A stretch of DNA of 64,000 bases from Fibrobacteria bacterium (lineage in GTDB: Bacteria > Fibrobacterota > Chitinivibrionia > Chitinivibrionales > FEN-1185). Under the pieces are notes generated by a model. It made no database searches and was not told the origin of the DNA. It saw nothing but the letters and a program-made list of their open reading frames with translations. Position 1 is the stretch's first letter. Each line of letters starts with the position of its first letter. A program made the translations under genes and the position numbers. The stretch lies in assembly GCA_037447435.1 (NCBI GenBank), contig JBBIGR010000014.1, forward strand, positions 21,305 to 85,304, written 5' to 3'. Of the stretch, positions 9,996 to 37,911 are shown piece by piece.

Positions 9996-10023
9996 TTATC
10001 GGTCAAAATCGGTTTAACTTTAA
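9996..10023 (-). promoter_or_regulatory. Sigma28 (FliA/SigD)-type promoter for flagellin
   Basis: The minus strand reads TAAAGTTA-N11-ACCGATAA versus consensus TAAAGTTT-N11-GCCGATAA. It lies ~165 nt upstream of the fliC ATG and overlaps the tadA stop codon. Confidence 0.6.
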
Positions 10024-10475: not shown

Positions 10476-10665
10476 AGCCGTAATCCCTTTCTTTAAGGAA
10501 AATTGATTATATTAATTAGATTGTAATTGCCCGATTTTTCCTAACATTTGCCTAATAAATTGCGCCGTAACCGGATAGTTGCAACTGTGATTTGTCTACA
10601 TACCATGCGTAGATACTTTTTATTGAGACACTAATACTGACGTTAATATACTTTCGAAAAACACC

Positions 10666-12426: not shown

Positions 12427-14582
12427 ACAATGTCTTTGTCGCATTGATACTTGCGATCCTGGCGGTAACGGGCATAGTGCAAGCGGCCCCGCAAGGCAAA
12501 GAACCCTCAAAAGCTTTATCCGAGCAAAAACCGGCGGAACAATCTGCAGTCGCACCCGAATTGCAAATGATGTCGCCTTTGGATGTGAAAGACGCCGACA
12601 TTCAAGATGTAATACGCACGATTTCCAAAGGATATAATGTCAATATCATCCTCGACAAAGATGTTTCCGGCAAAGTTACGGTGCATTTGTCCGATGTGCC
12701 CGTCATTGAGGGACTTCGAACCCTTTCCCGGTCCATCGGGTTAGAGGTAGTTAAGGAAGGCAACGTTTACCGTATTCGCAAGGCGATGGACGAGCAGCGA
12801 TCGGTAATCACTTTTATAAATAATAAACTGACCGTCGATGTCCAAAACGTCGATGTCAAGGATTTCCTCAAGGACATCAGTGCGAAGACGGCAATAAGCA
12901 TAGTCCCCGATGCAAAAGTGAGCGGCAAAATTTCGGGAAAACTTTTCCAGGTCGAACTTGACGATGGGTTACGGGCTTTGCTGCAGGGAAGCGGGCTAAA
13001 GCTTACAAAACGTAAAAATATTTACCAAGTACTTGCCGACGACGACGCACCGCCGGCGGGAAACCCTGCACCGGGTAATCCGTATCCCGGCTATCGCAGA
13101 TACGGAGGAAACCCCGGCGGCGGATCCACCTCGTTTTTTGTTGAATGCGCAAACGGCAAGATTTCATTGGATGTGGTAAACGGAAATCTTAATGATGTTA
13201 TAAAAGCAATTGCAGAACAAAGCGATATGGAAATCATCACCTACGGTACGATTTCGGGCGAAATAAATGCCAAGTTAAAGAATGTTCCGCTTACGCAGGC
13301 ATTGGCATTACTTTTAGGCGGTACGATGTTTACATTTGTGCAAAAAGATTCCATCATTCTCATCGGCGACCGAAACGCCGCAACCCCCTCAGGGCAAGCT
13401 CTTTCGAAATCGGAACTTATTCACTTGAATTGCATCAAGGCCGACGGCGTCATGCAAATACTGCCCAAAGATATCCCGCCGAGCAATGTGAAAGTCATTA
13501 AAGAACAGAATGCGCTGCTAGTGTCCGGTACTTCCGAAGACATCGTATCGGTACGGGAATTTATCTCGACCATCGATGTTCCAACACCTCAGGTTTCAAT
13601 TGACGCGGTTATTGTCGAGTACTCTGAAAACCTTAACAAGTCTTTTAATGTCAAGGCAAGCTTAAATCGGCCCGACCTAAATAATCAGTCATATTTTGCT
13701 CTTCCTTCAGATGACTTTAGAATCGAAAAAGGAACAGATGCAGTCGAGCTGGGGTCAAGCGGTACTGCTATAAAATCTTTTTTTCAAAACTTGCTCGGCC
13801 AAACATTCAATGGCAACACTATTATCAGCCATCTGCCCGATAATTTTTTCATTTTCTTGAAATTCCTTGAATCGCAAAACCAGGCAAAAGTCCTTGCGCA
13901 ACCATCTATTGTTACGCTAAACGGAAATAAAGCATCTATCAATGTGAATAAAACCAGCTATTTCAAAGTCACTACCGGAAACCCGCTCGGGGGCGACTAT
14001 TCAATACGGTTCCAACCCATCACATTCGGTATAAAGCTAGACATAACACCTTGGATATCCATGGGAGGACAAATCACGGCTGAAATAGCTCCCGAAGTGT
14101 CAAATTCCGACGGCCAAAGCGCTGACGGATATCCCAATGTATCGACACGATCCATTACGACCACTGTGCGCTTAAATAACGGAGAAACTATAGTCCTTGG
14201 TGGCTTAGTACAAAACCAACAAACCGATGCAAAACAAAAGATACCCATTCTTGGTGATATTCCGTTCATTGGGTTTTTGTTTAGAACCAATGTCAAGATC
14301 CGGACAAAATCCAATCTCGTTGTATATATAACGCCGCATATTATCATACCACAAACAAATAACGTTGATTTAAAAAAAGAACTTTCTAATTTCGAAAAAA
14401 ATGACATGGGGATAATAGACAAGAAAAACTCCTATGAGAACAACGCGGACAAGCAGGATAAAAAATCAGATAAACATATCGATACTACTAAAGAAAAAGA
14501 TTTGAAAAAAATGCCGATAAACCCTATACCGCAGAACACGGTAACGCCTGCTGCCAAAGATACGGTCCGACAGGCGCAATAA
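12423..14582 (+). CDS. Secretin (PilQ/GspD/MshL family)
   Basis: Signal peptide, N-terminal repeated N-domains, and a C-terminal secretin core ending ..VVLGGLVQNQ..KIPILGDIPFIGFLFR. ATGA overlap with the ATPase gene. Confidence 0.85.
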   Translation: MNNVFVALILAILAVTGIVQAAPQGKEPSKALSEQKPAEQSAVAPELQMMSPLDVKDADIQDVIRTISKGYNVNIILDKDVSGKVTVHLSDVPVIEGLRTLSRSIGLEVVKEGNVYRIRKAMDEQRSVITFINNKLTVDVQNVDVKDFLKDISAKTAISIVPDAKVSGKISGKLFQVELDDGLRALLQGSGLKLTKRKNIYQVLADDDAPPAGNPAPGNPYPGYRRYGGNPGGGSTSFFVECANGKISLDVVNGNLNDVIKAIAEQSDMEIITYGTISGEINAKLKNVPLTQALALLLGGTMFTFVQKDSIILIGDRNAATPSGQALSKSELIHLNCIKADGVMQILPKDIPPSNVKVIKEQNALLVSGTSEDIVSVREFISTIDVPTPQVSIDAVIVEYSENLNKSFNVKASLNRPDLNNQSYFALPSDDFRIEKGTDAVELGSSGTAIKSFFQNLLGQTFNGNTIISHLPDNFFIFLKFLESQNQAKVLAQPSIVTLNGNKASINVNKTSYFKVTTGNPLGGDYSIRFQPITFGIKLDITPWISMGGQITAEIAPEVSNSDGQSADGYPNVSTRSITTTVRLNNGETIVLGGLVQNQQTDAKQKIPILGDIPFIGFLFRTNVKIRTKSNLVVYITPHIIIPQTNNVDLKKELSNFEKNDMGIIDKKNSYENNADKQDKKSDKHIDTTKEKDLKKMPINPIPQNTVTPAAKDTVRQAQ

Positions 14583-14592
14583 GGCAACAACA

Positions 14593-15846
14593 ATGCAAAA
14601 CACCGCTCATGGGATTACCTTAACCGATGATGGTTCTTTTCTATTTGTTTCGCTTAAAAAGCGCGACAATTCGTGGCGGATTATAACCAAAAAAAAATGG
14701 GACAGTTCAAATACTTTTAAAAACGGCCTTTTACTGAATCGCGGCGTTGTCGCCGCAGTTCCTTGTTCATTTAAAAACGCAAACACTAAAATCAACAATG
14801 AACAAGATTTGATTTATTCACAAGACAACGGCCTGCTTGCGCCCTATGCGCACACACCTTCGGTATCGCCGTTTTCAAATTATCTGGCGGCGAACTGCAT
14901 AGCTGCGGTTCCGGACGATTCGTTTTTGGCAACCCTTCCTCTCGCTTTTTCAAACAAAGATTTACATTCTTTTGTCAGCATATTCCAAACAGCGACTGAG
15001 TATAAAATCGGTATTATCATTAATAGCGCGTTGACGGCGGTTTTCACCATGTCCCCGGTCTCTCCCGAAGCGATCATCTCGCATCTCGCAAGGATCGAAC
15101 GTTACTGTTCGATCATGACGCCGGAAACTCCCATGCCAAGACATGTTTATACATTCAACTTTAAATCCGACGGTATCAATCAAAGTCATTTCCAATGCAA
15201 CGACCTGACCATTCCTCCGGAAATCGTTTCAAATAAGGAAACGGCTGTTGCAATCGGCGCAGCCTTGGCAAACGTTACTTGCAAGATTCCGACGCTTTCT
15301 TTCGATGCAACCCGTTCCTCCTTTCGCCACATCCGCGCAATCGGTTATGCGATCTCTATGGCTTTTTTAGGAAGCGTTATCGCCTGTTCGTTGTTTTTTG
15401 GAATTTTTTCCGCATACTCCGCCACAGCGCTTTCCAAATACAAATCAAAATATCAAACCATTGTACAACAAAATCCCGATATTAAAAAGCTTTTGGACGA
15501 AAATGAATCGTTTGCAAAAGATTTGCTATCCCTTTCTTCCGTATTCGCAAACCGTACGGGATGGGCCGATTTTCTTCAATTATTGGGCGTAATTCGACCA
15601 AGCGGTTTGTATTTTGAAATGCTTGGTTCCGAATCATTGAATAAAACAAATGGCACAGTCCGAATCGCTTTATCGGGCTATGCTTCAAACGAATCGCTTA
15701 TAACCGATTTTATTTCCGGCCTGCAAAAAAGCAATATTATATCCCAGGTCTCTTTGTCCTCGATGGAACGGGACAAAGCCCAAAATGTCGTTACGTATAA
15801 GGTCATATGCTTATTAAAATGTACCGCTTTATCCAAAACGAAATAA
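14593..15846 (+). CDS. PilM/PilN-like fusion (GspL/MshI-like inner-membrane alignment protein)
   Basis: About 245 aa cytoplasmic part ending AVAIGAALANV, one TM helix (AISMAFLGSVIACSLFFGIFSAY), then a coiled stretch and a PilN/GspM-like periplasmic domain. Called from architecture and context only. Confidence 0.5.
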   Translation: MQNTAHGITLTDDGSFLFVSLKKRDNSWRIITKKKWDSSNTFKNGLLLNRGVVAAVPCSFKNANTKINNEQDLIYSQDNGLLAPYAHTPSVSPFSNYLAANCIAAVPDDSFLATLPLAFSNKDLHSFVSIFQTATEYKIGIIINSALTAVFTMSPVSPEAIISHLARIERYCSIMTPETPMPRHVYTFNFKSDGINQSHFQCNDLTIPPEIVSNKETAVAIGAALANVTCKIPTLSFDATRSSFRHIRAIGYAISMAFLGSVIACSLFFGIFSAYSATALSKYKSKYQTIVQQNPDIKKLLDENESFAKDLLSLSSVFANRTGWADFLQLLGVIRPSGLYFEMLGSESLNKTNGTVRIALSGYASNESLITDFISGLQKSNIISQVSLSSMERDKAQNVVTYKVICLLKCTALSKTK

Positions 15847-16364
15847 TCCATATTTGCGCTTGTTCCTTATTGATCCTCGCAGCGCTTATATTGCTTAAAA
15901 TCGTTGCTATACCAATGGCCGTTTCATGCAGCACGGTTGCAGCGCAATCCGCCGTTTATCGTGGTTTGGTATCCGACAACAACCGGTACGGGGCAATTAA
16001 AGAGCAGTTAATTCTAAAAAAATCCGCTCTTGAGGATACGCGTGCCCGATTTGCCCTGGCGACTTTGCAGACGGGCGATTTGTCGTCCATTTTGCAATTA
16101 CTCATATCCCGCGCCAAAGAATCTGATATACGATTTGTAAAAATGCTGCCCGAAACCGATAGCAAAGCAAGTCCAAATAGCTATCCCGTTGTTTTGGAAA
16201 TGAACACATCGTATCATTCGCTTGGCCGTTTTATTGCGTCGCTTGAAAGTTTGCCGCATATTTTTTTGATACAGCGGTTAGCCATTAATTCCGAAAAAAA
16301 CGATATCAACGTCCGGATGCTCGTGAGTTGCGTTCTTGCACAACAGCCAAAGGACGTAAAATGA
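15807..16364 (+). CDS. PilO/GspM-like protein
   Basis: N-terminal TM helix, a coiled region, then YPVVLEMNTSYHSLGRFIASLESLPHIFLIQRLAI, which resembles the PilO core. The start is uncertain (15807 or 15819). Confidence 0.5.
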   Translation: MLIKMYRFIQNEIIHICACSLLILAALILLKIVAIPMAVSCSTVAAQSAVYRGLVSDNNRYGAIKEQLILKKSALEDTRARFALATLQTGDLSSILQLLISRAKESDIRFVKMLPETDSKASPNSYPVVLEMNTSYHSLGRFIASLESLPHIFLIQRLAINSEKNDINVRMLVSCVLAQQPKDVK

Positions 16365-16855
16365 TCCGCCAAAATAAACTTCGCTTTGTCCTGATGGCCG
16401 CAGTTACCGTTTTTGCATGGATCTTCGCAATTCGCATTACCGGCAGCGTCCTCAGTTTTCATCGCCCGGCAATTTCGGCGGTAAAGCCCGAAAGCGAAAA
16501 TGCCTTTTCAGCCTCTTTCGCCATTGTCAACAAAGCCCTCTTAATTCCTGAGTATAAAGCGTCTCACTATAACCCGACTTTCGAAACGCCGTTTAAAACG
16601 GTTTCCGAGTCCCGGGCACAAACCAATCCGACTTCGGTAAAAACGCGCGTATTGCCGGCTCCCCGGCCAAGGCTTTCTTTGCAGGGAGTATTGTTCAAGT
16701 CCAGTCCGCTGTCTATTCTTGCGAACGAATCCGGCGCAACGTTTATTCTTGGTGTGGGAGACTCAATTTCAGGTCAAAAAATCGTTTCCATTACTAAAAC
16801 CACTGTTACGCTCAAAGACAAATTCGGGACCTATGAACTTTCGGTAAAAGAATAG
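16361..16855 (+). CDS. PilP/GspC-like protein
   Basis: I prefer the ATG at 16361, which forms an ATGA overlap with the upstream stop. It has a TM anchor. The C-terminus LSLQGVLFKSSPLSILANESGATFILGVGDSISGQKIVSITKTTVTLKD fits the PilP/GspC-HR beta-domain pattern. Confidence 0.45.
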   Translation: MIRQNKLRFVLMAAVTVFAWIFAIRITGSVLSFHRPAISAVKPESENAFSASFAIVNKALLIPEYKASHYNPTFETPFKTVSESRAQTNPTSVKTRVLPAPRPRLSLQGVLFKSSPLSILANESGATFILGVGDSISGQKIVSITKTTVTLKDKFGTYELSVKE

Positions 16856-16867
16856 CGAAACACGGCA

Positions 16868-18271
16868 ATGGACGTTCGCAATGAGCACGGATCAAGCCTT
16901 ACCATAGTGCTTATCTTTTCGGTTTTCGCATTAATCACCACTTCCGTTTATATAATAAGTCAATGGACCATCGCCAAACCCGGGCTATTGGCCCCCTCGT
17001 CGTTTCAAGCGCTTTTAAACGCCCGATCGGGCATTTGGAAAGCAATGGAACTTATGAACGCCCCGCCGCCCGATACTCTTGCCTCCATCAATACTCTTGG
17101 CACCAAATTCAACGACACCTTATTTGGTAAGCAAACGCAAAACATCGCAGACAGCTCGGCTTTGCCGCCGGACGATACGACCGATGTCTCGATTTTCAGT
17201 TCCGATTCGTTCGGAAAATGCAAAGTAATTTTCACCTATATACCTTGCTTTAAAAATTTGGAATCCAACGGCATATTTCGAATGCAATCAAAAACGGTTT
17301 CAGCCCGTTTGGGCGGCATTTTGCATACGTCGCCAGATACGGTTTGTTTTCTTGGTACTAAAATTCCACCACAAGGAGGCGGATTAATTGACGGTAAGGT
17401 CACCCAAATTCCCGATTCAACCTTAGGAGGACCCACTAAAAGTAAATTCATATCTGAGTTCAGAAAACAAGATCTTGTCAAGGTTATTTCTTACTATAAA
17501 GCAAAATTTTCAAATACTAATGATTCTTTGTTTCAAAACTCGGTAATTACTATACAAGATAACGATAAAATCCCCACCATAAAAGATATTGTCAATGGTC
17601 CTTTACTCTTAGATGGATCTCATCATGATTTGTATTGGAAAGAAAAACGTAGAATCCTAGTACTCGGTGATCTGCAAATTACCGGAACGGTTACTGTTGA
17701 AAACATTGAATTTCTTGTTAGTGGAAATGTTAATCTTTTTGACAATTGCGTATTTAGAAATGTTTCCATATTTTGCAGTAAAACATTGACAATTACGGAC
17801 AAAGCCGTTTTTTCAGGAAATGCCTTATCTCTTTATCAAATTAATGCTAGTAAACGAGGACGGATTGAGAATAACAGCGTACTTGTGGCATATAATGAAA
17901 AAAAAGATACATCATCTTCCAGGATCAAAGTATTGTGCTCAATTTTTTTAACTCAAGAGGTACGATGCGATGGAACCGTCATTTCGTGTGGCAATCGGGC
18001 CGGGATAAAGACTGACAAAAATGTCATTATACATGGATCTCTTTGGTCCGATAGTGTTATTTGCCACGAAGGAACCCTTTTGGGGTTTATGCGCTGTAAA
18101 GAATTGATCTCATCCGAAGAACTCGATTCCCGGCAAACAAGCACACCACCACCTATTTCCGGAAAAAACGTAATGAAAGGTTCCGTTCGCAGGCTTGAAA
18201 CAATCGCCGATTACCCATATCCGTTTTTTATGGGCAAACCGTCGATCGTGAGCTGGGAAGAGAGTATGTGA
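16868..18271 (+). CDS. Large PilX/GspK-like protein with repetitive beta-rich C-terminal region
   Basis: The N-terminus EHGSSLTIVLIFSVFALITTSVYI resembles the non-cleaved pseudopilin-like anchor of PilX/GspK (no Glu5). The rest (467 aa) is unrecognised. Its position is directly before two prepilin genes. Confidence 0.4.
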   Translation: MDVRNEHGSSLTIVLIFSVFALITTSVYIISQWTIAKPGLLAPSSFQALLNARSGIWKAMELMNAPPPDTLASINTLGTKFNDTLFGKQTQNIADSSALPPDDTTDVSIFSSDSFGKCKVIFTYIPCFKNLESNGIFRMQSKTVSARLGGILHTSPDTVCFLGTKIPPQGGGLIDGKVTQIPDSTLGGPTKSKFISEFRKQDLVKVISYYKAKFSNTNDSLFQNSVITIQDNDKIPTIKDIVNGPLLLDGSHHDLYWKEKRRILVLGDLQITGTVTVENIEFLVSGNVNLFDNCVFRNVSIFCSKTLTITDKAVFSGNALSLYQINASKRGRIENNSVLVAYNEKKDTSSSRIKVLCSIFLTQEVRCDGTVISCGNRAGIKTDKNVIIHGSLWSDSVICHEGTLLGFMRCKELISSEELDSRQTSTPPPISGKNVMKGSVRRLETIADYPYPFFMGKPSIVSWEESM

Positions 18272-18678
18272 TGAAGCACGCACGATACCAGGATGGTATG
18301 ACCATTCTTGAGGCGCTCATCGCGATTCTTATTCTCGGCATTACGACAACGGCCATAACGAGCCTGATCGTAACCGGTGACAGGATTGCGGGCCGTCGCA
18401 CAACGATATATACCGCAACGACCCTTGCGAAAAGCGAAATTGAACGTCTTCGTGCGTATGAGAAATCATTGGTGCTTCCGAAGGATACGCTATACGACGA
18501 GGTCGTCAACGGCGTGGAATACGAAGTCAAACGAAACTGGATACCCAATGATACGATTTCCATGAATTCCACGGTTTTACATAGGGAATATTCCGTTTCG
18601 GTAACCAGAAAAATCAATCAATCCGTATCGGTCTCATTCAGGACATTGCAAGGATATTATGGCGAACCGACTCAATAA
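18268..18678 (+). CDS. Prepilin-type N-terminal cleavage/methylation domain protein (PilV/GspI-like minor pilin)
   Basis: Leader MMKHARYQDG, then MTILEALIAILILGI (G|xTxxE class III signal). The start is GTG 18268 or ATG 18271, overlapping the upstream stop. Confidence 0.75.
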   Translation: MMKHARYQDGMTILEALIAILILGITTTAITSLIVTGDRIAGRRTTIYTATTLAKSEIERLRAYEKSLVLPKDTLYDEVVNGVEYEVKRNWIPNDTISMNSTVLHREYSVSVTRKINQSVSVSFRTLQGYYGEPTQ

Positions 18679-19213
18679 AGCACACGGAGTGACGCTTGTG
18701 GAGCTCATGATTGCGATTGCTATGTCGGGTATCGTCATTGGTCTTGCCATGTTTACCTGGACATATATTTCCCGGCACACGACGCTGCAAAAGCAAAAAA
18801 GTCTTTTTTATTCGCAAGCCGAGGCAATTGCAGCGGGAATTGCCAATACCGTACGAACGTCGCCGAACGTTATTTCGTACTCCACAAATGCAATAACCTG
18901 CGTCGATAAAAATCATGGCGATACGGTCACGTATGAATTGTACGGGGACAGCTTGCGGAAAAATACCGTCGGTATCCCTTGTGTGGCCGAAGGCGCCCGT
19001 TTTACAACCTTTGCAATCGAAGAAAAGGCCATTCCAATTCAGTTGCCTCCCGGCGCTGTTTACGACGAAAAAAAGCAAATAGATGTCTTATTGGTTCTTA
19101 CTCTCGGCATGGAAAACGGTACCGGATTATCGTGTACCGTTCCCATGCAAATCAAGGTAAAGAAACCGCTCGACAACACGGGAATATCCGCACGGGGACT
19201 TTGGAATTTCTGA
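18659..19213 (+). CDS. Prepilin-type N-terminal cleavage/methylation domain protein (PilW/GspJ-like minor pilin)
   Basis: Leader MANRLNKAHG, then VTLVELMIAIAMSGIVIGLAMF. It overlaps the previous gene by 20 nt. Confidence 0.75.
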   Translation: MANRLNKAHGVTLVELMIAIAMSGIVIGLAMFTWTYISRHTTLQKQKSLFYSQAEAIAAGIANTVRTSPNVISYSTNAITCVDKNHGDTVTYELYGDSLRKNTVGIPCVAEGARFTTFAIEEKAIPIQLPPGAVYDEKKQIDVLLVLTLGMENGTGLSCTVPMQIKVKKPLDNTGISARGLWNF

Positions 19214-28641: not shown

Positions 28642-31482
28642 TCATTTCGAATTAACAAAAGATACTACCGCATCGTCTTTTCCGCCGAATTTCACATACT
28701 TCTTGTAAAAATCTTTTGCCTTATCCTGATTCTTAAGATCGTAAAAGTAAATATCGCCGATGTCCTTATAGGCAATAAAGAATTTCTTTTCGTCGTCCCG
28801 ACCCCGAACGGACTTTTTGTACGCATCGATGGCGTCTTCGAATTTGAGCACAAGCTTAAGTTCGCGGGCAAGCCCATACGCCAATGACGCGCTCTTCGGA
28901 TACACTTCAAGTCCGCGTTTAAAAGCGGATATTGCCTGGTCATGAAGTTGCTGCATGCTCAATACCCTGCCTAAAAGTCCAAACACTTCGGGTTGGCGAG
29001 GTGCTTTGCGCGCAACTTCTGCGTATAATTCGAATGCTGCCTGGTATTGAGATATCCCTTCATACGCTTTGCCCATTCCAAGGATAAAATCGACATTATG
29101 GGGTGAAGAGCCAAGGGCACGGCCAAAACTTTCAATCGCCTTGTCATATTGCTTTTTTGAGAGATTTACTCTTCCTGCACCTGCATGGGCAAGCGAATTT
29201 TCGGGCATGAGCGTGGAGGCAACGGTAAACGAAATGATTGCTTCATCCTGCCGATCTTCCAGTTCCGCAATTTCACCGTTCATCAGGTGTGCCCATCCGC
29301 TCTTTTTGTTTGATGCATATTGAGAATACATGGTTTTTGCCTTATCCTTCATCCCCATGCGCAAGTACACGGAACAAAGACGATATACCAATTCCTCGTT
29401 TTTGGAATTACCTGAAAAAACTTTTTCATAAATCATGGCGGCCCGTTCGTAATCGCCGAGCAAAAACAACGCTTTTCCCAAACCTATCGCGGCTGGCTCG
29501 CTAAACGTGCCGAAAGCAAGGGACTGATTGTAGAATTTAACGGCCAAATCATATTCTCCGTTGTCTAAATAAATATCGGCAAGATATTTATAACAAGAAG
29601 CACAGGACTTGCTCTTGACAATTGCCTTCAGAAGCAAGTCTTTGGCGGTTTCAAAATCGCCCGCCTCTTTATATAAAATCCCTGCCCATTGAATTATTTC
29701 GAACGACGAAGAATCGCGGGACAAAGCGCGCTTTATGTAATCGAATGCGACATCGCGTCGCCCAATGGAATTGGCCACCTGCGCAAATTGGACCAAAAAG
29801 ACGGTATTAAAAGGATCAAGGCGCGCGGCGACTCCAAGATGTTCGTACGCGCTGTCTTTGTCTCCTATCGATAGCAGCAACTTGCCATATTCATATCTGC
29901 AATTTGCGTTTTGCGGATCAATGCCGATCGACTGAGACAAAAGCGGCTTTGCAGTTGCGATTTGCTTCTTCGCGGCATATAATTTTCCGAATTCATAGAG
30001 TATTTCCGCATTACCCGATTCCAGTGAATAGGCTTTTCGCAGCTGTAAAAACCGCCCGTTATCGTTCCCGTTCTTTTCGTAAGCCCTCGCAAGTAACAGA
30101 TGCGACATCGCAACGGTGCTGTCGAGATTATTGACGTTTTCCAGCACGGCAATCGCGTCGCGCCATTTTTGATCGGCCAGGTAAATTTGGGCTAAATCTA
30201 TTTGCGCTTTGACATTTCTCGGATCCGCTATTGTCCATTCCTTGATAACGCTCAGCAGTTTCTTGCTGTCGTTTTCTATGCTGTAACATGACGCAAGCAA
30301 TGAAAGAATACGAACATTTCCTTTCATTTGGGCACGGCATTTTTCCAACGATTCAATAGCCTCCTTTGGTTGATTGTTTTTAATCAGGCATTCACCGAGC
30401 AATGAAAGGCATTCGAAATTTTTAGGCATCATTTCAATTGATTTCTGCAAAACGACGACAGCGTCATTAAAGTGCTCTTGGGAGTAATACACGCTACCCA
30501 ATTCACACCACGCAGCGGAATCGGTCGGCATTTTCTCCAGATATTTTTTGTATTGGTTTACCGCGGCAACCCTGTTGGCCTGAGCGGCAAGGCATTGACC
30601 GAGCATTTTCGACATTATGGGTTTTGCATCGGGAAGCAAGAGAGCTTTATCGAGCAAAACTTCGGCCTTGTGCCAGTTGCGTTCTGCAATGTAAATACCG
30701 GCCAAACGTTCGAAATTCCGGATATCGTTCGGATAATCGCTGATGTTCTTTTCAAAAGCCCGTATCGCCTTTTGCGTTTGAGACGATAATTCGAAGAGTT
30801 TTGCATAATTATAGAGATACTCCTGCTTTTTCGCCGAGGTCGCCATAGTCATGAGCTTGTCATATGCGGCAATCGCCTTTTTATAATCCCCCATTTTTTC
30901 ACTTGCAAATGCAGCCAGTTCCAACGCTCTACGGTTTTTCGCGAACTTCGCATCCGAATAGAGCGCAAGAACTTCATCGTAAGCGCCAAGCGCATTTTGG
31001 GATTCCATCACCATGAGGGTCAATCCGTCCTGAGCAGCTAAAAGATTCGATATATTTTGAGCAAGTTCAGCCACTTTGGCATGATTTTTTTTAGCGGAAT
31101 AAGCAGCTATCATTTTTGCGATGATTTGCGGCGAGGGATGTTGCTTCGTGCAATAGAGCTCGAACGCTGCAATGGCTTTGTCGGTACATACCGAGCGCAT
31201 AAACCCTTCCCCGGCCTTAATAAGCCAATCCTTATTCGAATCATTATCCAATTCATATAATTTCATACATGTTTCAGCTGCGATGCTGTCTTGGCCGGCC
31301 TTGAACTGATCTTGTGCGGTGCGAATCATATCGGTACTTAATTTTGTAACCGTTGATTGCATTGTCGGATTTGCCGAAGCATTATCCTGGGTGTCAAACT
31401 TTATATGTGTTTTACCATAGCTGGGTATCGCAAACCCGATTGCAGCGCAGATGATGATGGTTTTCAGTTTTGTGTTTTTCAT
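28642..31482 (-). CDS. Large tetratricopeptide-repeat (TPR) protein, exported
   Basis: Dozens of TPR-like 34-mers (A..Y....G.Y..A...Y..AL) run across ~940 aa. I prefer the start at 31482 (MKNTKLKTIIICAAIGFAIPSYG signal), preceded by GAGGAGGAAAGT. Confidence 0.85.
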   Translation of the reverse strand: MKNTKLKTIIICAAIGFAIPSYGKTHIKFDTQDNASANPTMQSTVTKLSTDMIRTAQDQFKAGQDSIAAETCMKLYELDNDSNKDWLIKAGEGFMRSVCTDKAIAAFELYCTKQHPSPQIIAKMIAAYSAKKNHAKVAELAQNISNLLAAQDGLTLMVMESQNALGAYDEVLALYSDAKFAKNRRALELAAFASEKMGDYKKAIAAYDKLMTMATSAKKQEYLYNYAKLFELSSQTQKAIRAFEKNISDYPNDIRNFERLAGIYIAERNWHKAEVLLDKALLLPDAKPIMSKMLGQCLAAQANRVAAVNQYKKYLEKMPTDSAAWCELGSVYYSQEHFNDAVVVLQKSIEMMPKNFECLSLLGECLIKNNQPKEAIESLEKCRAQMKGNVRILSLLASCYSIENDSKKLLSVIKEWTIADPRNVKAQIDLAQIYLADQKWRDAIAVLENVNNLDSTVAMSHLLLARAYEKNGNDNGRFLQLRKAYSLESGNAEILYEFGKLYAAKKQIATAKPLLSQSIGIDPQNANCRYEYGKLLLSIGDKDSAYEHLGVAARLDPFNTVFLVQFAQVANSIGRRDVAFDYIKRALSRDSSSFEIIQWAGILYKEAGDFETAKDLLLKAIVKSKSCASCYKYLADIYLDNGEYDLAVKFYNQSLAFGTFSEPAAIGLGKALFLLGDYERAAMIYEKVFSGNSKNEELVYRLCSVYLRMGMKDKAKTMYSQYASNKKSGWAHLMNGEIAELEDRQDEAIISFTVASTLMPENSLAHAGAGRVNLSKKQYDKAIESFGRALGSSPHNVDFILGMGKAYEGISQYQAAFELYAEVARKAPRQPEVFGLLGRVLSMQQLHDQAISAFKRGLEVYPKSASLAYGLARELKLVLKFEDAIDAYKKSVRGRDDEKKFFIAYKDIGDIYFYDLKNQDKAKDFYKKYVKFGGKDDAVVSFVNSK

Positions 31483-31717
31483 ACTTTCCTCCTCTTGCTT
31501 CGTCTGTATTTTTATTGCTACGTTTTTGTTAAGCGCGTAAATATTAGGGCACAACTCGCCCTTTGATTATTAAAATTGCTCCCTCATTTTATCTGTTCTT
31601 GCCCTCGGTAACCCAATAAAGCATTTTAAAGGCAAGACTATTTCCACCCTTATTATATCATCCACTTTTAAAGAGTACAATAGTTTTTTAATCTTTTTTT
31701 TAGGATTAGTAGAGGCG

Positions 31718-33484
31718 ATGAAAAATAGCGAATCTGTTAATTACTATAATACGGCACAAATACTTAAAAATAATGGTGACTTTTCAAGTGCATTGGAAGC
31801 TTTGGAATCTGCATTAAGAATCAGCCCTGATTTTTTTGAAGCAAGGGTAAATTGTTCCGAAGCGAACAGAATTTTGGGAAATACCGCTCAAGCCATTGAA
31901 AATATGAACGTTGCGCTGACATTAAAACCAGATTTTTTTGAGGGCCACAATGCTATCGGGCTTTTATACCATAGTATTTCTTCATTCGACCATGCCATAG
32001 GCCACTTTAAAAAGGCCGTTTCTATTAATCCGGAATTTGCCGAGGCATTTTATAACTTGGGCAATTGCCATAGAGATACTGAAAATTTTGATGAATCCAT
32101 AGCAGGTTTTAAAGCTGCAATTGCATTAAATCCGCATTTTTTCCAGGCGATCGCAAATTGCGGCGAGGCGATGCAAATTACGGGGATGATTGACCAAGCA
32201 GAGGAATATTTTAAAAAAGCGCTCGATATTAATCCGTCAAGCGACATCGTCATCAGCAATTTGTTGTTGACCCAGAACTATAATCCGGGCTATTCCCAAC
32301 TTCAACTGTTTGAAAACCATAAAAAGTATGCAGCCTTGATTGCACACCGCAATGATAAATTTCCACCCATTTTAAAAAAAATGTGCACGGCGGATAAAAA
32401 ATTACGTATCGGATATGTTTCCGGCGACTTTAGAAACCACCCGGCTTCATATTTTCTAACACCGTTATTTTCATATTGTAATCATGAGGATTTCCGGATT
32501 TATTGCTATAGTAACACACAGGTTCCCGACGCCAAAACCGTTTTTTTCAGGGATCGTTCCGATTCATGGAACTCGATTCGCGACATGACGGATCGGGAAG
32601 CTGCGGAAAAAATCCGGAAAGACGGGATAGACATTCTCGTTGATTTATGCGGACATAGCGCCGACAACAGGCTGGGGATTTTCTGTTTTAAACCCAGCCC
32701 CGTCCAAGTTACCTACCTTGGATACCCGAATTCGACCGGTCTTACGGTTATGGATTATAGATTGACAGACAACATTTGCGATCCGGAGGGCCAGCAATCT
32801 TTTTATACAGAAGCCCTGCGGTATTTGCCGCACTGTTTTTGTAACTATGCGCCGCAGGAAAGGATACAAGCGTCCAGCGAACCGCCGGTAAAGAGAAACA
32901 ATTTCATTACCTTTGGATCCACCCATACGCTGGCACGACTGAACAATCAGGTACTTGACCTTTGGGCAAATATTTTGGAGCGTATCCCTTCTTCACGATT
33001 GCGTATTGTGCGCAATACTTTGAAAGGAAATGCGGCCAAACGCATTAGGGATCGCTTCATAGGTCAGGGAATAACTGCGGATAGAATTTCCCTGGTGCAC
33101 GACATACCTCCTAACGCTCACCTTGATATTTATACTGAAATCGATGTTTTATTGGATACGTTTCCCTGGAGCGGCCACACGTCGGCCTGCGAGGCGCTTT
33201 TTATGGGTGTTCCTGTAATTTCATTGCACGGCGAAAGGTATGCAGGAAACATGGTCAATAGCGTCCTATCGAACATCGGCCTTCCGGAATATATCGCGCA
33301 GTCGAAGGAGGAATATATTCTCAAAGCCGAACGCGCAGCAACGGATAGTTCCTCGCTCATCGATCTGCGATCGACATTGCGAAGAAAAATGCTCGAAAGC
33401 CCTTTATGCGATTCTAAAACCTTTGTAAAGAATATCGAATCCGCTTATCGAAGTATGTGGGAAGCCTACTGCAATGCACTATAG
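31718..33484 (+). CDS. TPR-domain glycosyltransferase, GT41 / SPINDLY-OGT-like
   Basis: N-terminal TPRs (ALRISPDFFEA.., ALTLKPDFFEG.., AVSINPEFAEAFYNLG..). The C-terminal half has KLRIGYVSGDFRNHPASYF, DILVDLCGHSADNRL, VQVTYLGYPNSTG and DTFPWSGHTSACEALFMGVPV, typical of bacterial SPY-type GT41. Confidence 0.75.
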   Translation: MKNSESVNYYNTAQILKNNGDFSSALEALESALRISPDFFEARVNCSEANRILGNTAQAIENMNVALTLKPDFFEGHNAIGLLYHSISSFDHAIGHFKKAVSINPEFAEAFYNLGNCHRDTENFDESIAGFKAAIALNPHFFQAIANCGEAMQITGMIDQAEEYFKKALDINPSSDIVISNLLLTQNYNPGYSQLQLFENHKKYAALIAHRNDKFPPILKKMCTADKKLRIGYVSGDFRNHPASYFLTPLFSYCNHEDFRIYCYSNTQVPDAKTVFFRDRSDSWNSIRDMTDREAAEKIRKDGIDILVDLCGHSADNRLGIFCFKPSPVQVTYLGYPNSTGLTVMDYRLTDNICDPEGQQSFYTEALRYLPHCFCNYAPQERIQASSEPPVKRNNFITFGSTHTLARLNNQVLDLWANILERIPSSRLRIVRNTLKGNAAKRIRDRFIGQGITADRISLVHDIPPNAHLDIYTEIDVLLDTFPWSGHTSACEALFMGVPVISLHGERYAGNMVNSVLSNIGLPEYIAQSKEEYILKAERAATDSSSLIDLRSTLRRKMLESPLCDSKTFVKNIESAYRSMWEAYCNAL

Positions 33485-33502
33485 GTTACGATTTTGCCAA
33501 GT

Positions 33503-34588
33503 TCAGTCACGCTTCGGGGCGAATTTTGAACCGCCATACATTCCCATATCGTTCCGTGAATTGTCTCCATTTTTAAATTCACCGCTCGGGTTTCCGGCGT
33601 GAATGCACGGAGAATATCGGGACAAAGTATAGCGATCGGACGTTTTTTTCCGTTTTTTTGACGCGGTTGAATCGGACAATTCCGTGTGAAGCGACTTGGC
33701 AAGCACCGTGTCTTTGATGCGCGATTTATCGGTGGGTAAAGAAACATCCCGTTCGACTGCCACAGAGTCGAATTCCGAACCGGCAAAAATAGGGTTTTTA
33801 AATAAATTATTCTTGATATCCGTGGAGTCTTTCCGATCATTTTTCTTTTTAAGAATGCCCAGTTCGGGATCACAATCCAGTAAATTGCCGTCGGAATTTC
33901 CATAAACGCAATTATACTCAAACGTTATAGCCGACGTACCGTCGCACCAGAGCCCATTGCTTTTATTAAAGGCAATAATATTGTTTTGAAATACCGGGTT
34001 TGATTGGGAGCTCTTAATACCGAACGTATAATTGGAGGCGATGACATTATTTATGGCAGTTATATTTCCCCGTTGCTGGCAAACAATACCAACATTATTA
34101 TAATCGATTCGACAATGATGGACATTGGGACTGCAATTTAAAACGCTTATCGCATTATACGCGCCGCTAATATCGGCATACCCGAATTCAACACCTTTTT
34201 CGGGTGCATTTTTAAAAACGATACCGTACCATCGCGGCCCGGCTCCCTTTGCTCCTTCCGGCATAAATGAAATACGTTTATCGGCAATCCCGACGCATTC
34301 GAATCCGCCCTGAACAACAATTGAAATCGTGCCGGAATCCAATGCGTCAAGCTGCGGTACCGCCTTGTTGCGCACACGCTCCTTGCCGATGAGAATAGCG
34401 GTCCCCGGCCCGATTGCAAGATGCGCACTTTTACTCACCATAATATCCTGGGTAACCACATACGGTCCCTCTTCGGCAGTCCAGCGCGTATCTTTATTGA
34501 TAATTCCGCCCACTACCGTTTCCGCATCGGTTGCTCCCGGAAAAACAAAAAGCCCCGTGAATAGCACTATAAAAAAGCGGTTCTTCAT
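33503..34588 (-). CDS. Secreted right-handed parallel beta-helix repeat protein
   Basis: Signal peptide and PbH1-like repeats (CSPNVHHCRIDYNNVGIVC.., NNVIASNYTFGI.., NNIIAFNKSNGLWC..). C-terminus SPCIHAGNP...DMGMYGG. ATGA overlap with the upstream regulator gene. Confidence 0.65.
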   Translation of the reverse strand: MKNRFFIVLFTGLFVFPGATDAETVVGGIINKDTRWTAEEGPYVVTQDIMVSKSAHLAIGPGTAILIGKERVRNKAVPQLDALDSGTISIVVQGGFECVGIADKRISFMPEGAKGAGPRWYGIVFKNAPEKGVEFGYADISGAYNAISVLNCSPNVHHCRIDYNNVGIVCQQRGNITAINNVIASNYTFGIKSSQSNPVFQNNIIAFNKSNGLWCDGTSAITFEYNCVYGNSDGNLLDCDPELGILKKKNDRKDSTDIKNNLFKNPIFAGSEFDSVAVERDVSLPTDKSRIKDTVLAKSLHTELSDSTASKKRKKTSDRYTLSRYSPCIHAGNPSGEFKNGDNSRNDMGMYGGSKFAPKRD

Positions 34589-35547
34589 TCTGTTTCCACC
34601 AAATCTTTGTAAGCGTAATACAGCAAATACTTTTCGTATGTCGGAACAGTAATAAAAAACTGATATCCTTCTATCGGATGAGCATCCGGTTTTGCCGCTT
34701 GTACCTTTACATACGTTAAAATTTCGGAATCCTTGAATTCCGTCAGCACCCTGACATGATCGCGCTCGATTTTCGCCTGAGAACAGGCGGAAATCATGTC
34801 TGCATTCGATATTTCGCTCTTAATTTCGGTTCCGCCTTTTTGTAGTGCAACAAAATTCCCAAGCGAAAAGATAAGCGCAATTGCCTCGGAAGAAAATCCG
34901 GGGATTTTTTCATACGCTTTTTTAAAAACCATTCGTAAATAATCGCAGAAGCCCGACAGCTTGGTTCCGTCCAGTAGAATTATCCTTCCCTCTTTTACCT
35001 CTATGATGCCGTTTGTTTGCAACACATCGAGCAAATGCATAATGCAACGATTATTGACGGTCAAAAGTTGAGACAATTCGCACGTCGTATGAGCGAGATC
35101 CAATTCTCTGAAAGAAGCGGTGCCCGTCGCCGAACCGTGACGCAGAAAATAATAGTGCAACGCTATAATTGTATGTAAACAATGATTCTTGGTTTGAATG
35201 GATTCCAGCCGCGAATTCGCTTTTCGTATTTTTTCGCTGGTCGTTCTAATCATCGACATAAACCAGGCCGGGACACCGCTTATTTTTTTAAGAAACGTGT
35301 CTGCGTCGATCACGATAACGGCTGTCTCTTTAATCGCAAGAGCCGAAGCACTACGCGGCTTACCGTCTATAAGCGCCATTTCGCCGAAAACCGAACCTTT
35401 TGCAAGTTTTGTAAGTTCGACATCTTTTGTACCGATTTTGCGATATATCTTTATCATACCGGATTGAACAATATACAATTCCTGGGAATGGTCGTTCTCA
35501 TGGAAAAGATGGGTTCCGGGTTTGAATGTCTTGGCAAAAGGTTGCAT
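34585..35547 (-). CDS. Cyclic nucleotide-binding domain regulator (Crp/Fnr-like, extended)
   Basis: cNMP-binding signature FGEMALIDGKPRSASALA, followed by a wHTH-like ELSQLLTVNNRCIMHLLDVLQTNGIIEVKEGRIILLD, plus ~120 extra C-terminal residues. Confidence 0.8.
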   Translation of the reverse strand: MQPFAKTFKPGTHLFHENDHSQELYIVQSGMIKIYRKIGTKDVELTKLAKGSVFGEMALIDGKPRSASALAIKETAVIVIDADTFLKKISGVPAWFMSMIRTTSEKIRKANSRLESIQTKNHCLHTIIALHYYFLRHGSATGTASFRELDLAHTTCELSQLLTVNNRCIMHLLDVLQTNGIIEVKEGRIILLDGTKLSGFCDYLRMVFKKAYEKIPGFSSEAIALIFSLGNFVALQKGGTEIKSEISNADMISACSQAKIERDHVRVLTEFKDSEILTYVKVQAAKPDAHPIEGYQFFITVPTYEKYLLYYAYKDLVETE

Positions 35548-35631
35548 AGTTTTTTTAACGACAGGAATTATTTTAAAATTTCCCTTTTAATTGTACGTTT
35601 CACGCTTTGTAAAATCAAGGAGAATACTTCG

Positions 35632-36447
35632 TTGCGTCCCATTACGTTTTCAATTGTTTTCGCACTAATCATAACACTATCGGGCGGATGCTCCCGGAAT
35701 AAAGAAGTTGCATTGACCGTGGATTTTTCGGGGAAACGGCAATTCCGTTATTGTATTGATGCCGTTGTTCGCGGATCAATAGCCTCGATCGACACGCAGC
35801 GCTCTTTTCAAAGCGCCGCAATGTGTACGCTCATTTGCTCGGGAGACGGCAAAAACAGAACAATGTTTCATGCCACCGTGCCGTATGCAAAATTTAGCTC
35901 CACAATTCTCGGGGAAGACGAAATCAACAACCTGACGCAACAAGCGCGTGACGTAAAACTCACTTGCGCTTTGGACAATGCAACCATTGTTCCCGATGAT
36001 TCCATGGATTTGCCGCTTATACGAATCGGCGAATGGGATGTCTTTACCGATCTTATAAAGGCGATTCCTGCTTTGCCTAAAACAAAAGTGAAAAAAGGCG
36101 CTTCGTGGGACAGAGAAAAAATCATCCCGCTTGACACTAAACAGGGAAAAGCAACGGGGCACTTATACCAATCCTTTAAACTCGATAGTATTTCATATCC
36201 GGCAAATAAATTCCTGATCGCCTATATTTCATGGAACTTCACCTATCAAATCGAACTTCACGAACGCGATTCCTTAAAAATCCTGGACCGGATGCCCTCT
36301 CGCGGTATCGGACAGGGGCAAGCCGCGGTGGATATAAGCAACAAAAGGCTTGAATATGCAAAAGCGAGTTTTTCGGTGCCTCAAGCGAGCGAAGGATTGT
36401 ACAAAATATCCTGGAATGAATCTATTTCCCTGAAGTATGTCCCATGA
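35632..36447 (+). CDS. Hypothetical exported protein / probable lipoprotein
   Basis: A TTG start at 35632 is preceded by AAGGAG with 9-nt spacing. It gives (M)RPITFSIVFALIITLSGGCSRNKE, a signal peptide with Cys. The ORF-track start 35182 would overlap the divergent regulator by 366 nt. Confidence 0.55.
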   Translation: MRPITFSIVFALIITLSGGCSRNKEVALTVDFSGKRQFRYCIDAVVRGSIASIDTQRSFQSAAMCTLICSGDGKNRTMFHATVPYAKFSSTILGEDEINNLTQQARDVKLTCALDNATIVPDDSMDLPLIRIGEWDVFTDLIKAIPALPKTKVKKGASWDREKIIPLDTKQGKATGHLYQSFKLDSISYPANKFLIAYISWNFTYQIELHERDSLKILDRMPSRGIGQGQAAVDISNKRLEYAKASFSVPQASEGLYKISWNESISLKYVP

Positions 36448-37136
36448 AATTTTTACTTTTCTTTTTATCCATAGCGGCATTCTCAAACGTCGTACGTGCC
36501 CAAAACGATAAATTCGTCATTAATAAAGACACAATTCTTTCATCGAGTTTTGAAGTTCCCGACAGCATGACCTGTTCGATTTCGCCCGGAGTCACGATTA
36601 AATTCAATTGCTATGGAAAATTTATCGTGCGGGGCCTGCTCATTGCCCAAGGCACTTCACAAAAACCGATTACCTTTACCTGTATCGACCGTGCGCATGG
36701 TGCGGAAAAACCTCCCTGTTGGTACGGTTTGTTCGTTATGGGAAAATCGTCCCATGCCGATATGCGTAATTGTCGATTCGAAGGAATGTATCGTGCGCTT
36801 ATTTACGAGTCGCGCCCACTATTCGATTCTTGCGAATTTGCAGGGAATCATTGCGGACTCTATTGCACAAAAAAAGCCGCGCCACTCGTGCGTAATTGCC
36901 GGTTCTACAGAAATATATACGGCATTGTGTCCGACTTTTCGGCACCCTTGCTTGCCAACAATATCATTTCGGAAAACACCATCGGAATAGATTTACAAGT
37001 AGGTTCGATGCCCCTTGCGGGTCCAAATACAATTTTTGGAAACCAAACAAATATCAAGACGGAAGCCGCACTCAAAGGTGACAGTACTGCCTTGCCTGCT
37101 CGATATTTGTGGGAACTTATGAACGAATTATTTTAA
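36444..37136 (+). CDS. Secreted right-handed beta-helix repeat protein (paralog of 33503-34588)
   Basis: Signal peptide MKFLLFFLSIAAFSNVVRA. It shares the N-terminal INKDT...PG..I.F pattern and has PbH1-like repeats (MRNCRFEG.., FDSCEFAGNHCGLYC.., VRNCRFYRNIYGI.., NNIISENTIGI). ATGA overlap with the lipoprotein gene. Confidence 0.6.
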   Translation: MKFLLFFLSIAAFSNVVRAQNDKFVINKDTILSSSFEVPDSMTCSISPGVTIKFNCYGKFIVRGLLIAQGTSQKPITFTCIDRAHGAEKPPCWYGLFVMGKSSHADMRNCRFEGMYRALIYESRPLFDSCEFAGNHCGLYCTKKAAPLVRNCRFYRNIYGIVSDFSAPLLANNIISENTIGIDLQVGSMPLAGPNTIFGNQTNIKTEAALKGDSTALPARYLWELMNELF

Positions 37137-37176
37137 TTGGGTTACGGCTTAATTCTCTTTTACAAGGAGGTTTCGC

Positions 37177-37911
37177 GTGCAAAACGAAGTGAGCAGACGC
37201 TCTTTCATGAAAACCGCAGCGGCAACAGGCGCCGCTTTGGGGCTGGGCTCGACTGCCGATACGATATTTGCCGATGTCAAACCGGTACAATTGCCCCAGG
37301 TTCCCAAAGACGTTTCGATGATTCAACTTCCTTATGCGCAATCGGCGCTGAGCCCTTCCATTTCGGCAAGGACCGTTGATTTACATTATCGAATGCATCA
37401 TACCGGATATTATACAATGTTAAAGGGGTGGATCAATGTCCATCCGGAATATCAGAATCAAACATTGGTACAATTGATTCAATCCAATAAAAACGGCATC
37501 AATATGGCGGAAACGGTTTTCCACTATTCGATTCTCCTTAACAACCACAACTGGTATTGGGCAAGCCTGACGCCGCACGGAGGCGGCTTGCCTAAAGGGA
37601 AAATATCAAAATTGATAAATGATTCTTACGGATCCTATGATGCATTCAGAAAATCATTTCTCGAAGAAGGTATGCAGCTTGGAATCGGATGGGTTTGGAC
37701 CGTCTTGGACAACAACAAACTCAAAGTGTATCTTTCGGAATACGGCGACACGCCCATTTTACGTGGATATCAACCCCTCCTTGCAATCGATGTATGGGAG
37801 CATGCCTACTACATGGATTACCAAAACGAACGGCAGAAATATCTTGAAGCTGTTTTAGATAAGCTGCTCAATTGGGATTTTGCAGAAAGCAATTTACCTG
37901 CGGTAAAGTGA
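37177..37911 (+). CDS. Fe/Mn superoxide dismutase with twin-arginine (Tat) signal peptide
   Basis: Tat motif SRRSFMK, then a hydrophobic region and IFA|D. SOD motifs LHYRMHHTGYY, NNHNWYWASL and DVWEHAYYMDYQN. GTG start with RBS AAGGAGG. Confidence 0.9.
   Translation: MQNEVSRRSFMKTAAATGAALGLGSTADTIFADVKPVQLPQVPKDVSMIQLPYAQSALSPSISARTVDLHYRMHHTGYYTMLKGWINVHPEYQNQTLVQLIQSNKNGINMAETVFHYSILLNNHNWYWASLTPHGGGLPKGKISKLINDSYGSYDAFRKSFLEEGMQLGIGWVWTVLDNNKLKVYLSEYGDTPILRGYQPLLAIDVWEHAYYMDYQNERQKYLEAVLDKLLNWDFAESNLPAVK

Follow-up and report, generated by a model that had tools for sequence, protein, structure and literature searches.

A conserved divergent gene cluster of Fibrobacterota joins a predicted cAMP receptor with exported beta-helix proteins and a lipoprotein

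Introduction

The classical CRP proteins, such as CAP, Mycobacterium tuberculosis CRP, C. glutamicum GlxR and S. meliloti Clr, are built from a beta-roll, a phosphate-binding cassette with the motif G-E...R-S-A, a dimerisation helix and a winged helix-turn-helix (wHTH) domain. Many members of the CRP/FNR group use the beta-roll for other ligands, and the cassette residues are lost in members that do not bind cyclic nucleoside monophosphates (cNMPs). A longer form is known from Bd2879 of Bdellovibrio bacteriovorus (PDB 9sfa; CASP16 T1298), described as a nucleotide-binding domain followed by the helix-turn-helix domains HTH1 and HTH2, with a degenerate cassette (T65/S66, D54/Q55) and a C-terminal zinc-finger tail (PMC12750041). 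In our literature searches Bd2879 was found only in that CASP16 highlights paper, and nothing relevant was found on Chitinivibrionia plus cyclic AMP (cAMP). Here we analyze a stretch of 64,000 nucleotides (the window) from contig JBBIGR010000014.1 of a Fibrobacteria bacterium (assembly GCA_037447435.1), in which four genes form two back-to-back operons: REG, encoding a regulator with the domain order of Bd2879, is followed by bH1, encoding an exported beta-helix protein, and LIPO, encoding a lipoprotein, is followed by bH2, encoding a second exported beta-helix protein. The cluster recurs across Fibrobacterota, and we consider it about an even call that it constitutes a lineage-specific envelope module with its own cyclic-nucleotide sensor, in which REG together with cAMP controls both REG-bH1 and LIPO-bH2.

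The Fibrobacterota, especially the Chitinivibrionales and Chitinispirillaceae, are important polysaccharide degraders with almost no genetics. The module would offer a tractable entry point, with three compact, conserved and uncharacterised families tied to one sensor. It would give a physiological target to the two-winged-helix CRP architecture, so far known only from the Bd2879 crystal structure, and would make DUF6263-like lipoproteins and a discrete beta-helix family functionally accessible for the first time; if REG responds to cAMP, it would also bear on what cAMP signals in Fibrobacterota. We regard the novelty as moderate, with a regulator and folds of known kinds in uncharacterised families and an uncharacterised module.

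Organization of the locus

A preliminary description of this DNA had proposed four open reading frames (ORFs) in two divergent pairs, an 84-bp spacer and an ATGA overlap within each pair. All of these were found as claimed, with exact coordinates:

bH1, 33503 to 34588, minus strand: 361-residue Sec-exported right-handed beta-helix protein
REG, 34585 to 35547, minus strand: 320-residue CRP/FNR-type regulator with cNMP-binding domain, C-helix, winged helix 1, winged helix 2 and C-terminal helix
Divergent control region, 35548 to 35631: 84 bp, between the REG ATG and the LIPO TTG
LIPO, 35632 to 36447, plus strand: 271-residue lipoprotein, predicted all-beta barrel
bH2, 36444 to 37136, plus strand: 230-residue Sec-exported short paralogue of bH1

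The REG stop codon TGA overlaps the bH1 ATG at 34585-34588 (gaATGAag), and the LIPO stop codon TGA overlaps the bH2 ATG at 36444-36447 (ccATGAaa). LIPO starts with a TTG codon at 35632, with the Shine-Dalgarno sequence AAGGAG nine bases ahead at 35617-35622. Four-nucleotide ATGA overlaps are among the commonest gene junctions in bacterial operons. The coupling of a regulator to a beta-helix protein had been called unusual; the overlap is commonplace and ordinary by itself, and the notable point is the deep conservation of the REG/bH1 pair.

Conservation of the gene cluster in Fibrobacterota

Genomes, one per species, were scanned with the REG alignment as query, and 12 loci were found to encode a REG-family protein. 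These are Fibrobacterota metagenome-assembled genomes (MAGs) of Chitinivibrionales, Chitinispirillaceae, 'Fibrobacteres' and one Fibrobacteraceae; one of the 12 contigs is labelled Bifidobacteriales, which we took as a binning error. At all 12 loci bH1 lies immediately downstream of REG, down to about 29–35% REG identity, and the junction is a 4-nt overlap in seven of the 11 intact cases, the other gaps being at most 26 nt. The same order was found in eight metagenomic loci with enough flanking DNA and in L119, L120 and L121. LIPO-bH2 is placed divergently upstream of REG at half of the genome loci (6/12).

A metagenome scan seeded with bH2 yielded 36 loci, which were re-scanned with hidden Markov models. 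Of the 30 loci with upstream DNA, 28 have LIPO as the gene directly before bH2, and REG, followed by bH1 where the contig extends, is divergent next to LIPO in about 12 of the 18 loci with enough flank. The scan with the REG alignment also gave 68 loci with cNMP-binding proteins of other kinds, and these we used as a negative control; bH1, bH2 and LIPO occur in none of them within about 6 kb. Gene-neighbourhood searches had been suggested as a check on the module, and these counts bear it out. Because the arrangement is recurrent in many independent genomes, it is far beyond chance, and the four-gene cluster is real and conserved in Fibrobacterota, mainly in Chitinivibrionales and Chitinispirillaceae.

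L081 and L082, with REG 68% identical to that of the window, and L119 (50%) carry the four genes together with the GT41/TPR neighbours seen in the window. In L121 the four genes adjoin an exopolysaccharide (EPS) export cluster, and in L120 REG-bH1 stands alone between TonB/ExbBD clusters. Three variants lack one or more genes: L101 has bH1 facing LIPO-bH2 without REG, L095 has bH1 facing bH2 only, and in L097 REG faces bH2 without LIPO. The REG-less variants L101 and L095 indicate that the envelope genes attract each other without the regulator, with bH1 as the hub, and they fit REG as an accessory regulator of the envelope unit.

The regulator REG and its nucleotide pocket

The domains of REG map to the window as follows:

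REG nucleotide-binding domain and C-helix, 35194 to 35547, minus strand: residues 1-118
REG phosphate-binding cassette F-G55-E56-M-A-L-I-D-G-K-P-R65-S66-A-S, 35344 to 35385, minus strand
REG winged helix-turn-helix 1, 34972 to 35184, minus strand: residues 122-192, putative recognition helix 166-178
REG second winged-helix domain, 34648 to 34890, minus strand: residues about 220-300

Pfam searches matched REG to cNMP_binding (PF00027; E 1.9e-21, 76 bits against a cut-off of 27.5) and, weakly and below threshold, to HTH_Crp_2 (E 8e-4, 19.7 bits against 27). About 92 full-length orthologues of 304–354 aa (most 310–330) were recovered, and the few that carry names are from Chitinivibrionales or Chitinispirillaceae. 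When the family profile was compared with solved structures, the matches were Clr (7pza; E 5e-21), M. tuberculosis CRP (1e-19) and E. coli CAP (about 1e-13), in alignments running through the nucleotide-binding domain, the C-helix and the HTH (REG residues 6-198). The AlphaFold2 (AF2) model, with a predicted local distance difference test score (pLDDT) of 87, comprises a beta-roll (4-81), a long helix (94-117), a winged HTH (122-191) and a terminal helix, with a second winged-helix-like domain at about 220-300 in the pattern H-E-H-H-E-E; the C-terminus, residue 320, is a helix without a zinc-finger tail. In Foldseek searches with this model Bd2879 (9sfa) ranked first (E 2.6e-17, 346 columns) and was the sole full-length match, followed by GlxR, M. 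tuberculosis CRP, T. thermophilus CAP and Clr (E about 1e-13 to 1e-14).

Bd2879 and REG share an N-terminal cyclic-nucleotide-binding domain, a C-helix and two winged HTH domains, and the REG profile matches the nucleotide-binding domain plus HTH1 of Bd2879 with E 6.9e-13; the sequence identity is only 15–18%. The two differ in that REG has a canonical cassette and no tail, whereas Bd2879 has a degenerate cassette and a zinc-finger tail; we know of no beta-helix neighbour of Bd2879. REG shares with the classical CRPs the elements listed above; it is about 100 residues longer through the second winged-helix domain, is without their R-E...R signature and, unlike them, has a conserved operon partner that encodes an exported protein. 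Orthology to CRP or FNR was rejected, as REG scored 28.8 bits against 266 for the NCBIfam CRP model and 36.3 against 228 for FNR.

Across 35 aligned REG orthologues G55, E56, M57, A58, L59, R65, A67, S68, K106, R108 and N111 are invariant, as is S66; the cassette F-G-E-M-A-L-I-D-G-K-P-R-S-A-S is almost invariant, and the sensor domain has 24 invariant positions. Mean pairwise identity is 66% in the beta-roll sensor and 65% in the C-helix, 32% in wHTH1, 35% in the recognition helix and 22% in wHTH2. In the profile alignment N111 falls on N135 of M. tuberculosis CRP, a residue that contacts the adenine in the cAMP structures of that protein. The cAMP contacts of the Bd1971 domain are E58/M59, R67/S68, R108 and N113 (PMC12750041). 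Their REG counterparts are all invariant, namely E56-M57 for the ribose, R65-S66 for the phosphate, K106/R108 for base capping and N111 for the nucleobase, and since all four contact classes are kept, genuine cAMP binding is likelier for REG than for Bd2879. The CRP/FNR type and the intact cNMP phosphate-binding cassette of REG confirm the earlier assignment as a Crp/Fnr-like cNMP-binding regulator; the Crp-like label is right as to the CRP/FNR type and fails for a plain Crp, given the second winged-helix domain of the Bd2879 kind. REG is probably a cAMP-sensing receptor of this rare two-winged-helix CRP architecture.

The ligand sensed by the domain could be neither cAMP nor cGMP, as is the case for CooA, NtcA, CprK and FNR, or REG could work through protein contacts and not through DNA. 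Such a reading draws on the many CRP/FNR beta-rolls that take other ligands, on the degenerate cassette of the closest structural relative, Bd2879, on the weakly conserved HTH domains of REG with their sub-threshold HTH_Crp_2 match, and on the lack of a cyclase nearby among the scanned window ORFs. We judge it quite improbable, as the full G-E-x-A...R-S-A cassette and the C-helix Asn are invariant in the 35 orthologues, unlike in Bd2879, and these are the residues that non-cNMP members lose; furthermore, the profile aligned through the HTH of the DNA-bound Clr and CRP structures.

A further reading is that of an anti-phage or mobile-element module, such as a system akin to Pycsar whose effector senses a cNMP, and PADLOC gave cross-matches of REG to Pycsar TIR effectors and PycC (E 5e-11 to 5e-7). 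These are confined to residues 7-126, the shared cNMP-binding domain. There is no cyclase, TIR or transmembrane effector, bH1, bH2 and LIPO have no PADLOC match, and the module lies in ordinary chromosomal DNA with even GC content and housekeeping genes, in stable chromosomal synteny with relatives. A defence system of the Pycsar or CBASS type was rejected, and the domain content effectively refutes any such module.

Two further observations concern the REG family. One is a cNMP-binding protein from outside Fibrobacterota, in a Neomarinimicrobiota MAG (L014:5974-6954), which aligns with the REG profile as far as position 260, inside the second winged-helix region. Its gene adjoins no beta-helix gene, and proteins with two winged helices may occur more widely than this module does. 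At the Fibrobacteraceae locus L012:6001-6456 the REG frame leaves the family after about residue 93 and stops at 151 aa while bH1 is intact; the cause could be a frameshift, an indel in the assembly or decay to a pseudogene.

The exported beta-helix proteins and the lipoprotein

Both bH1 and bH2 carry Sec-type signal peptides and match the Pfam family Beta_helix (PF13229; E 3.5e-12 and 5.2e-12, 46–47 bits against 25.9). They have in common an N-terminal (I/V)INKDT...PG(T/V)xI motif. BLASTP aligned them with 25% identity over 209 residues (E 5e-8), and profile-profile comparison with hhalign gave a probability of 99.3% and E 1.8e-20 over 179 columns (bH1 24-232, bH2 20-201). By these alignments bH1 and bH2 are paralogues, in agreement with the preliminary description, and bH2 is essentially the N-terminal cap and first rungs of bH1 minus its C-terminal third. 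The bH1 family is discrete, with about 73 close orthologues of roughly 350–430 aa, named solely 'hypothetical' or 'parallel beta-helix repeat protein', after which the next match falls to E 5e-8.

The N-terminus of LIPO, MRPITFSIVFALIITLSGGC, is a lipoprotein signal with the lipobox LSGGC at residues 16-20, and the lipobox Cys is invariant among orthologues in alignment A6 and nearly invariant in A5. Export signals (signal peptide or lipobox) are present on all orthologues of bH1, bH2 and LIPO, so that export of the three proteins stands as first described. The term 'surface module' holds as far as export, since the signals point only to the periplasm or outer membrane and not to a surface location.

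Pfam gave no match for LIPO itself, and its sequence gave nothing significant among solved structures. In an exhaustive profile search, 1.84 billion representatives yielded only 91 relatives; these are all single-domain and of similar size, and remote ones among them match DUF6263 (PF19777) with up to 32.5 bits against a gathering threshold of 26.7. DUF6263 lipoproteins resemble the LIPO family in size (about 270–300 aa), and we found no mention of DUF6263 in the literature. LIPO appears to represent a small orphan family, distantly linked to DUF6263 by a transitive connection only. In its AF2 model (pLDDT 79; predicted TM-score, pTM, 0.75) two short helices accompany an all-beta barrel. Foldseek matched this model to the N-terminal beta-barrels of the large lipid transfer proteins ApoB100, vitellogenin, lipovitellin and MTP (E 2.7e-9 to 2e-4, probability 1.0), the best hit having a TM-score of about 0.46, and more weakly to LolA/LolB-type proteins. 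With TM-scores of 0.43–0.46 and identities of 10–13%, the likeness to the lipid transfer proteins is one of fold level only and no evidence of lipid binding.

A different comparison is with NosD and generic PbH1 (CASH) proteins, as bH1 and bH2 are predicted to be periplasmic and are paired here with a lipoprotein, an arrangement that recalls NosD plus NosL. The Pfam NosD model gave borderline scores for the two (25.2 and 25.4 bits against a gathering cut-off of 23.6), and the repeat model TIGR03804 matched bH2 with 27.8 bits against 19.45. NosD membership was rejected on the score for TIGR04247 (NosD_copper_fam), 14 bits against a cut-off of 300; no NosF/NosY ABC transporter, nosZ or other nos gene was found next to the module at the examined loci, and no solved NosD appeared in the PDB profile searches with bH1 and bH2.

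Pectate and alginate lyases, GH28 enzymes and C5-epimerases typically have the right-handed beta-helix fold. It is possible but unlikely that bH1 and bH2 are carbohydrate-active enzymes that have gone unrecognised, whether as lyase, hydrolase or epimerase, and that their substrate is a dietary or capsular polysaccharide, with LIPO as substrate-binding partner and REG exerting a catabolite-type control. Besides the fold, this would suit a host lineage that degrades polysaccharides, with a GH18 gene at 2770-3876 of the window, and the surroundings of some loci, where one is followed by the EPS export cluster, another has a weak Polysacc_lyase_14 neighbour and several lie beside TonB-dependent receptor clusters. 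However, the flanking genes vary from locus to locus, and bH1 and bH2 matched no CAZy-type Pfam family. Profile searches against solved structures gave nothing significant, the best match being AlgG at E 0.13 in a generic repeat alignment. The invariant residues are mainly Asn-ladder, Gly and Pro positions, a WYG motif and a C-terminal cap motif, RYxLSxYSPCIxxG...D.DG..N..G..GG, and conserved Asp residues are few (D81, D84, D216, D233, D257). In these searches the bH1 and bH2 families match no characterised enzyme, in agreement with the preliminary description, which recognised no obvious catalytic motif in them.

In some relatives a third, more divergent beta-helix paralogue lies directly downstream of bH2 (L001:3429-4298, minus strand; Pfam Beta_helix E 1.3e-4); further copies are at L091:5888-6187, L094:1673-1942, L096:4935-5183 and L117:1768-1926. 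Its position in the window is taken by a superoxide dismutase gene (37177-37911, plus strand; Fe/Mn type with a twin-arginine (TAT) signal), which begins 40 nt past the bH2 stop. The gap has no terminator-like site and the dismutase may be co-transcribed with LIPO-bH2; the order bH2-superoxide dismutase is repeated in the near-identical L111 and not in remoter loci.

The divergent control region and the proposed control of both operons

A promoter scan of the control region gave one sigma-70-like promoter directed at REG:

Putative REG-bH1 promoter TTGATT-17-TACAAT, 35590 to 35618, minus strand

Its layout, CTCCTTG(A/C)..17..(G)TA(C/A)AAT, is present in most of 26 orthologous REG upstream regions, and the 35-nt block that holds it is identical in L081/L082. 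The 3' part of the LIPO Shine-Dalgarno sequence, read in reverse complement as CTCCTTG(A/C), overlaps the -35 hexamer of the REG promoter. For LIPO, the most plausible -10 element by inspection is TAAAAT at 35574-35579, within DNA encoding the REG 5' untranslated region. With a -10 there, the core promoters of REG and LIPO would lie within one another, and any protein bound inside the 84 bp would affect both.

One short stretch of the window, 35590-35622, serves two genes on opposite strands, and this layout is kept across distant orthologues with the -35 as TTGATT or TTGCxx. The sharing of -35 and Shine-Dalgarno sequences also occurs in L001, L002, L006, L008, L009, L081-L083, L087, L091, L096 and L097, and further in L100, L104 and L108. 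L082 (~1215-1355), and likewise L081, has an insertion of about 140 bp between the REG promoter block and a conserved block upstream of the ATG. Several GC-rich, hairpin-like inverted repeats (e.g., CCGCCGACAGGAATCGGCGG and CTTCGGCTCCTTGAGCCGAAG) lie in this insertion, which could be a small repeat element or a structured leader. An Rfam scan of 33000-37600 with E up to 1 gave a spurious snoRNA match only.

In the mechanism that we propose, a cytoplasmic REG dimer would bind cAMP, and cAMP-bound REG would bind DNA in or near the 84-bp spacer and set the transcription of the two back-to-back operons, REG-bH1 and LIPO-bH2. The exported, paralogous beta-helix proteins would be periplasmic or outer-membrane-associated, LIPO would be a membrane-anchored beta-barrel lipoprotein, and the three may cooperate on one envelope task, most plausibly the binding or processing of a glycan or other envelope polymer. 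The earlier view of a coherent, uncharacterised and probably cyclic-nucleotide-controlled module is carried by the conserved co-occurrence and the intact cNMP pocket; the control of both operons by REG we infer from adjacency only.

Several results weigh against this mechanism. In appearance the REG promoter is strong and self-sufficient, which promoters that depend on an activator typically are not. Enumeration of palindromes (5-mers with gaps of 0-10 nt) in the 26 REG upstream regions, with shuffled controls, gave no shared palindrome above shuffle expectation, and the only words common to these regions are the -10, -35 and Shine-Dalgarno elements. No inverted repeat of at least 10 bp was found in 35400-35800, and a 20-bp imperfect palindrome at 35564-35583, GGAATTATTTTAAAATTTCC, loses its symmetry in L082 at 68% REG identity. 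The recognition helix lacks the CRP-type R-E...R pattern, and both winged-helix domains are poorly kept, at mean identities of 32% and 22% against the 66% of the sensor. No nucleotide cyclase was found among the scanned window ORFs, the scan leaving out five ORFs at 56.5–63.9 kb, and no catalytic or ligand-binding site was identified in bH1, bH2 or LIPO. Finally, REG-bH1 occurs without LIPO-bH2 and vice versa. As to the palindromes, a recognition helix that evolves this fast may simply use different operators from one lineage to the next.

A plausible minority explanation is that REG is a general cAMP receptor and global regulator, with bH1 merely co-transcribed, the envelope genes at most one target among others and the adjacency an inherited order. 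The very strong conservation of the sensor (66% mean identity, 24 invariant positions), a single REG-family gene per recovered locus, a promoter that looks constitutive and the failure to find a local operator would all agree with such a role, as would the varied contexts of REG-bH1 (TonB/ExbBD, EPS export, GT41/TPR genes). Global regulators, however, normally conserve both helix and site, whereas the recognition helix of REG averages 35% identity. The REG-bH1 junction, often with the 4-nt overlap, is kept to 29–35% REG identity, which is hard to explain without a functional link, and the other cNMP regulators (68 loci) are without these neighbours.

A more specific version of the module that we propose, in which bH1, bH2 and the DUF6263-like barrel LIPO would form a Fibrobacterota-specific periplasmic or outer-membrane machine for a glycan or lipid-linked polymer, set directly by cAMP via REG, we consider doubtful. 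If it were true, REG would be the first protein of the Bd2879-type architecture for which a target can be named.

Flanking genes and the wider window

Additional general partners of the module were looked for among its neighbours and rejected, as TonB/ExbBD/TonB-dependent receptor genes, a 388-aa protein, a C39-like peptidase, GT41/TPR genes and EPS export genes each flank some loci only. In a Chitinispirillaceae-like subgroup REG-bH1 is flanked by TonB/ExbB/ExbD genes and a TonB-dependent receptor with an N-terminal TonB_C domain, and another flank of REG-bH1 in this subgroup is a conserved protein of about 375–390 aa without a Pfam match. These flanks (L001:8056-12789, L002, L003, L005, L004, L012, L120:2974-6124 and 10006-16424) are recurrent and not universal. 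In L085, L086 and L088 a homologue of the 970-aa TPR protein of the window (28642-33484) adjoins LIPO-bH2, with neither REG-bH1 nor GT41 in between, a layout which suggests that REG-bH1 and the TPR-GT41 gene were gained or lost as a block relative to the window. In L121 (10400-16966) the module is followed by Poly_export (Wza-like), ParA/CbiA-type kinases, Wzz and LytR_cpsA_psr; this exopolysaccharide export set is a single case that fits an envelope-polymer role.

The housekeeping genes of the window include SpoIID, deformylase, branched-chain amino-acid biosynthesis, MetH, FabF and the TAT-exported Fe/Mn superoxide dismutase. A type IV pilus or type II secretion system (T2SS)-like cluster spans 10666-19213 and comprises a T2SSE ATPase with MshEN, an STN-domain secretin, PilN/PilO-like genes and a prepilin-type N-methylation protein. 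Flagellin is encoded at 8976-9830, and the GH18 gene mentioned above is chitinase-like. The pilus cluster, flagellin and GH18 fit a motile, chitin-using member of the Chitinivibrionales/Chitinispirillaceae.

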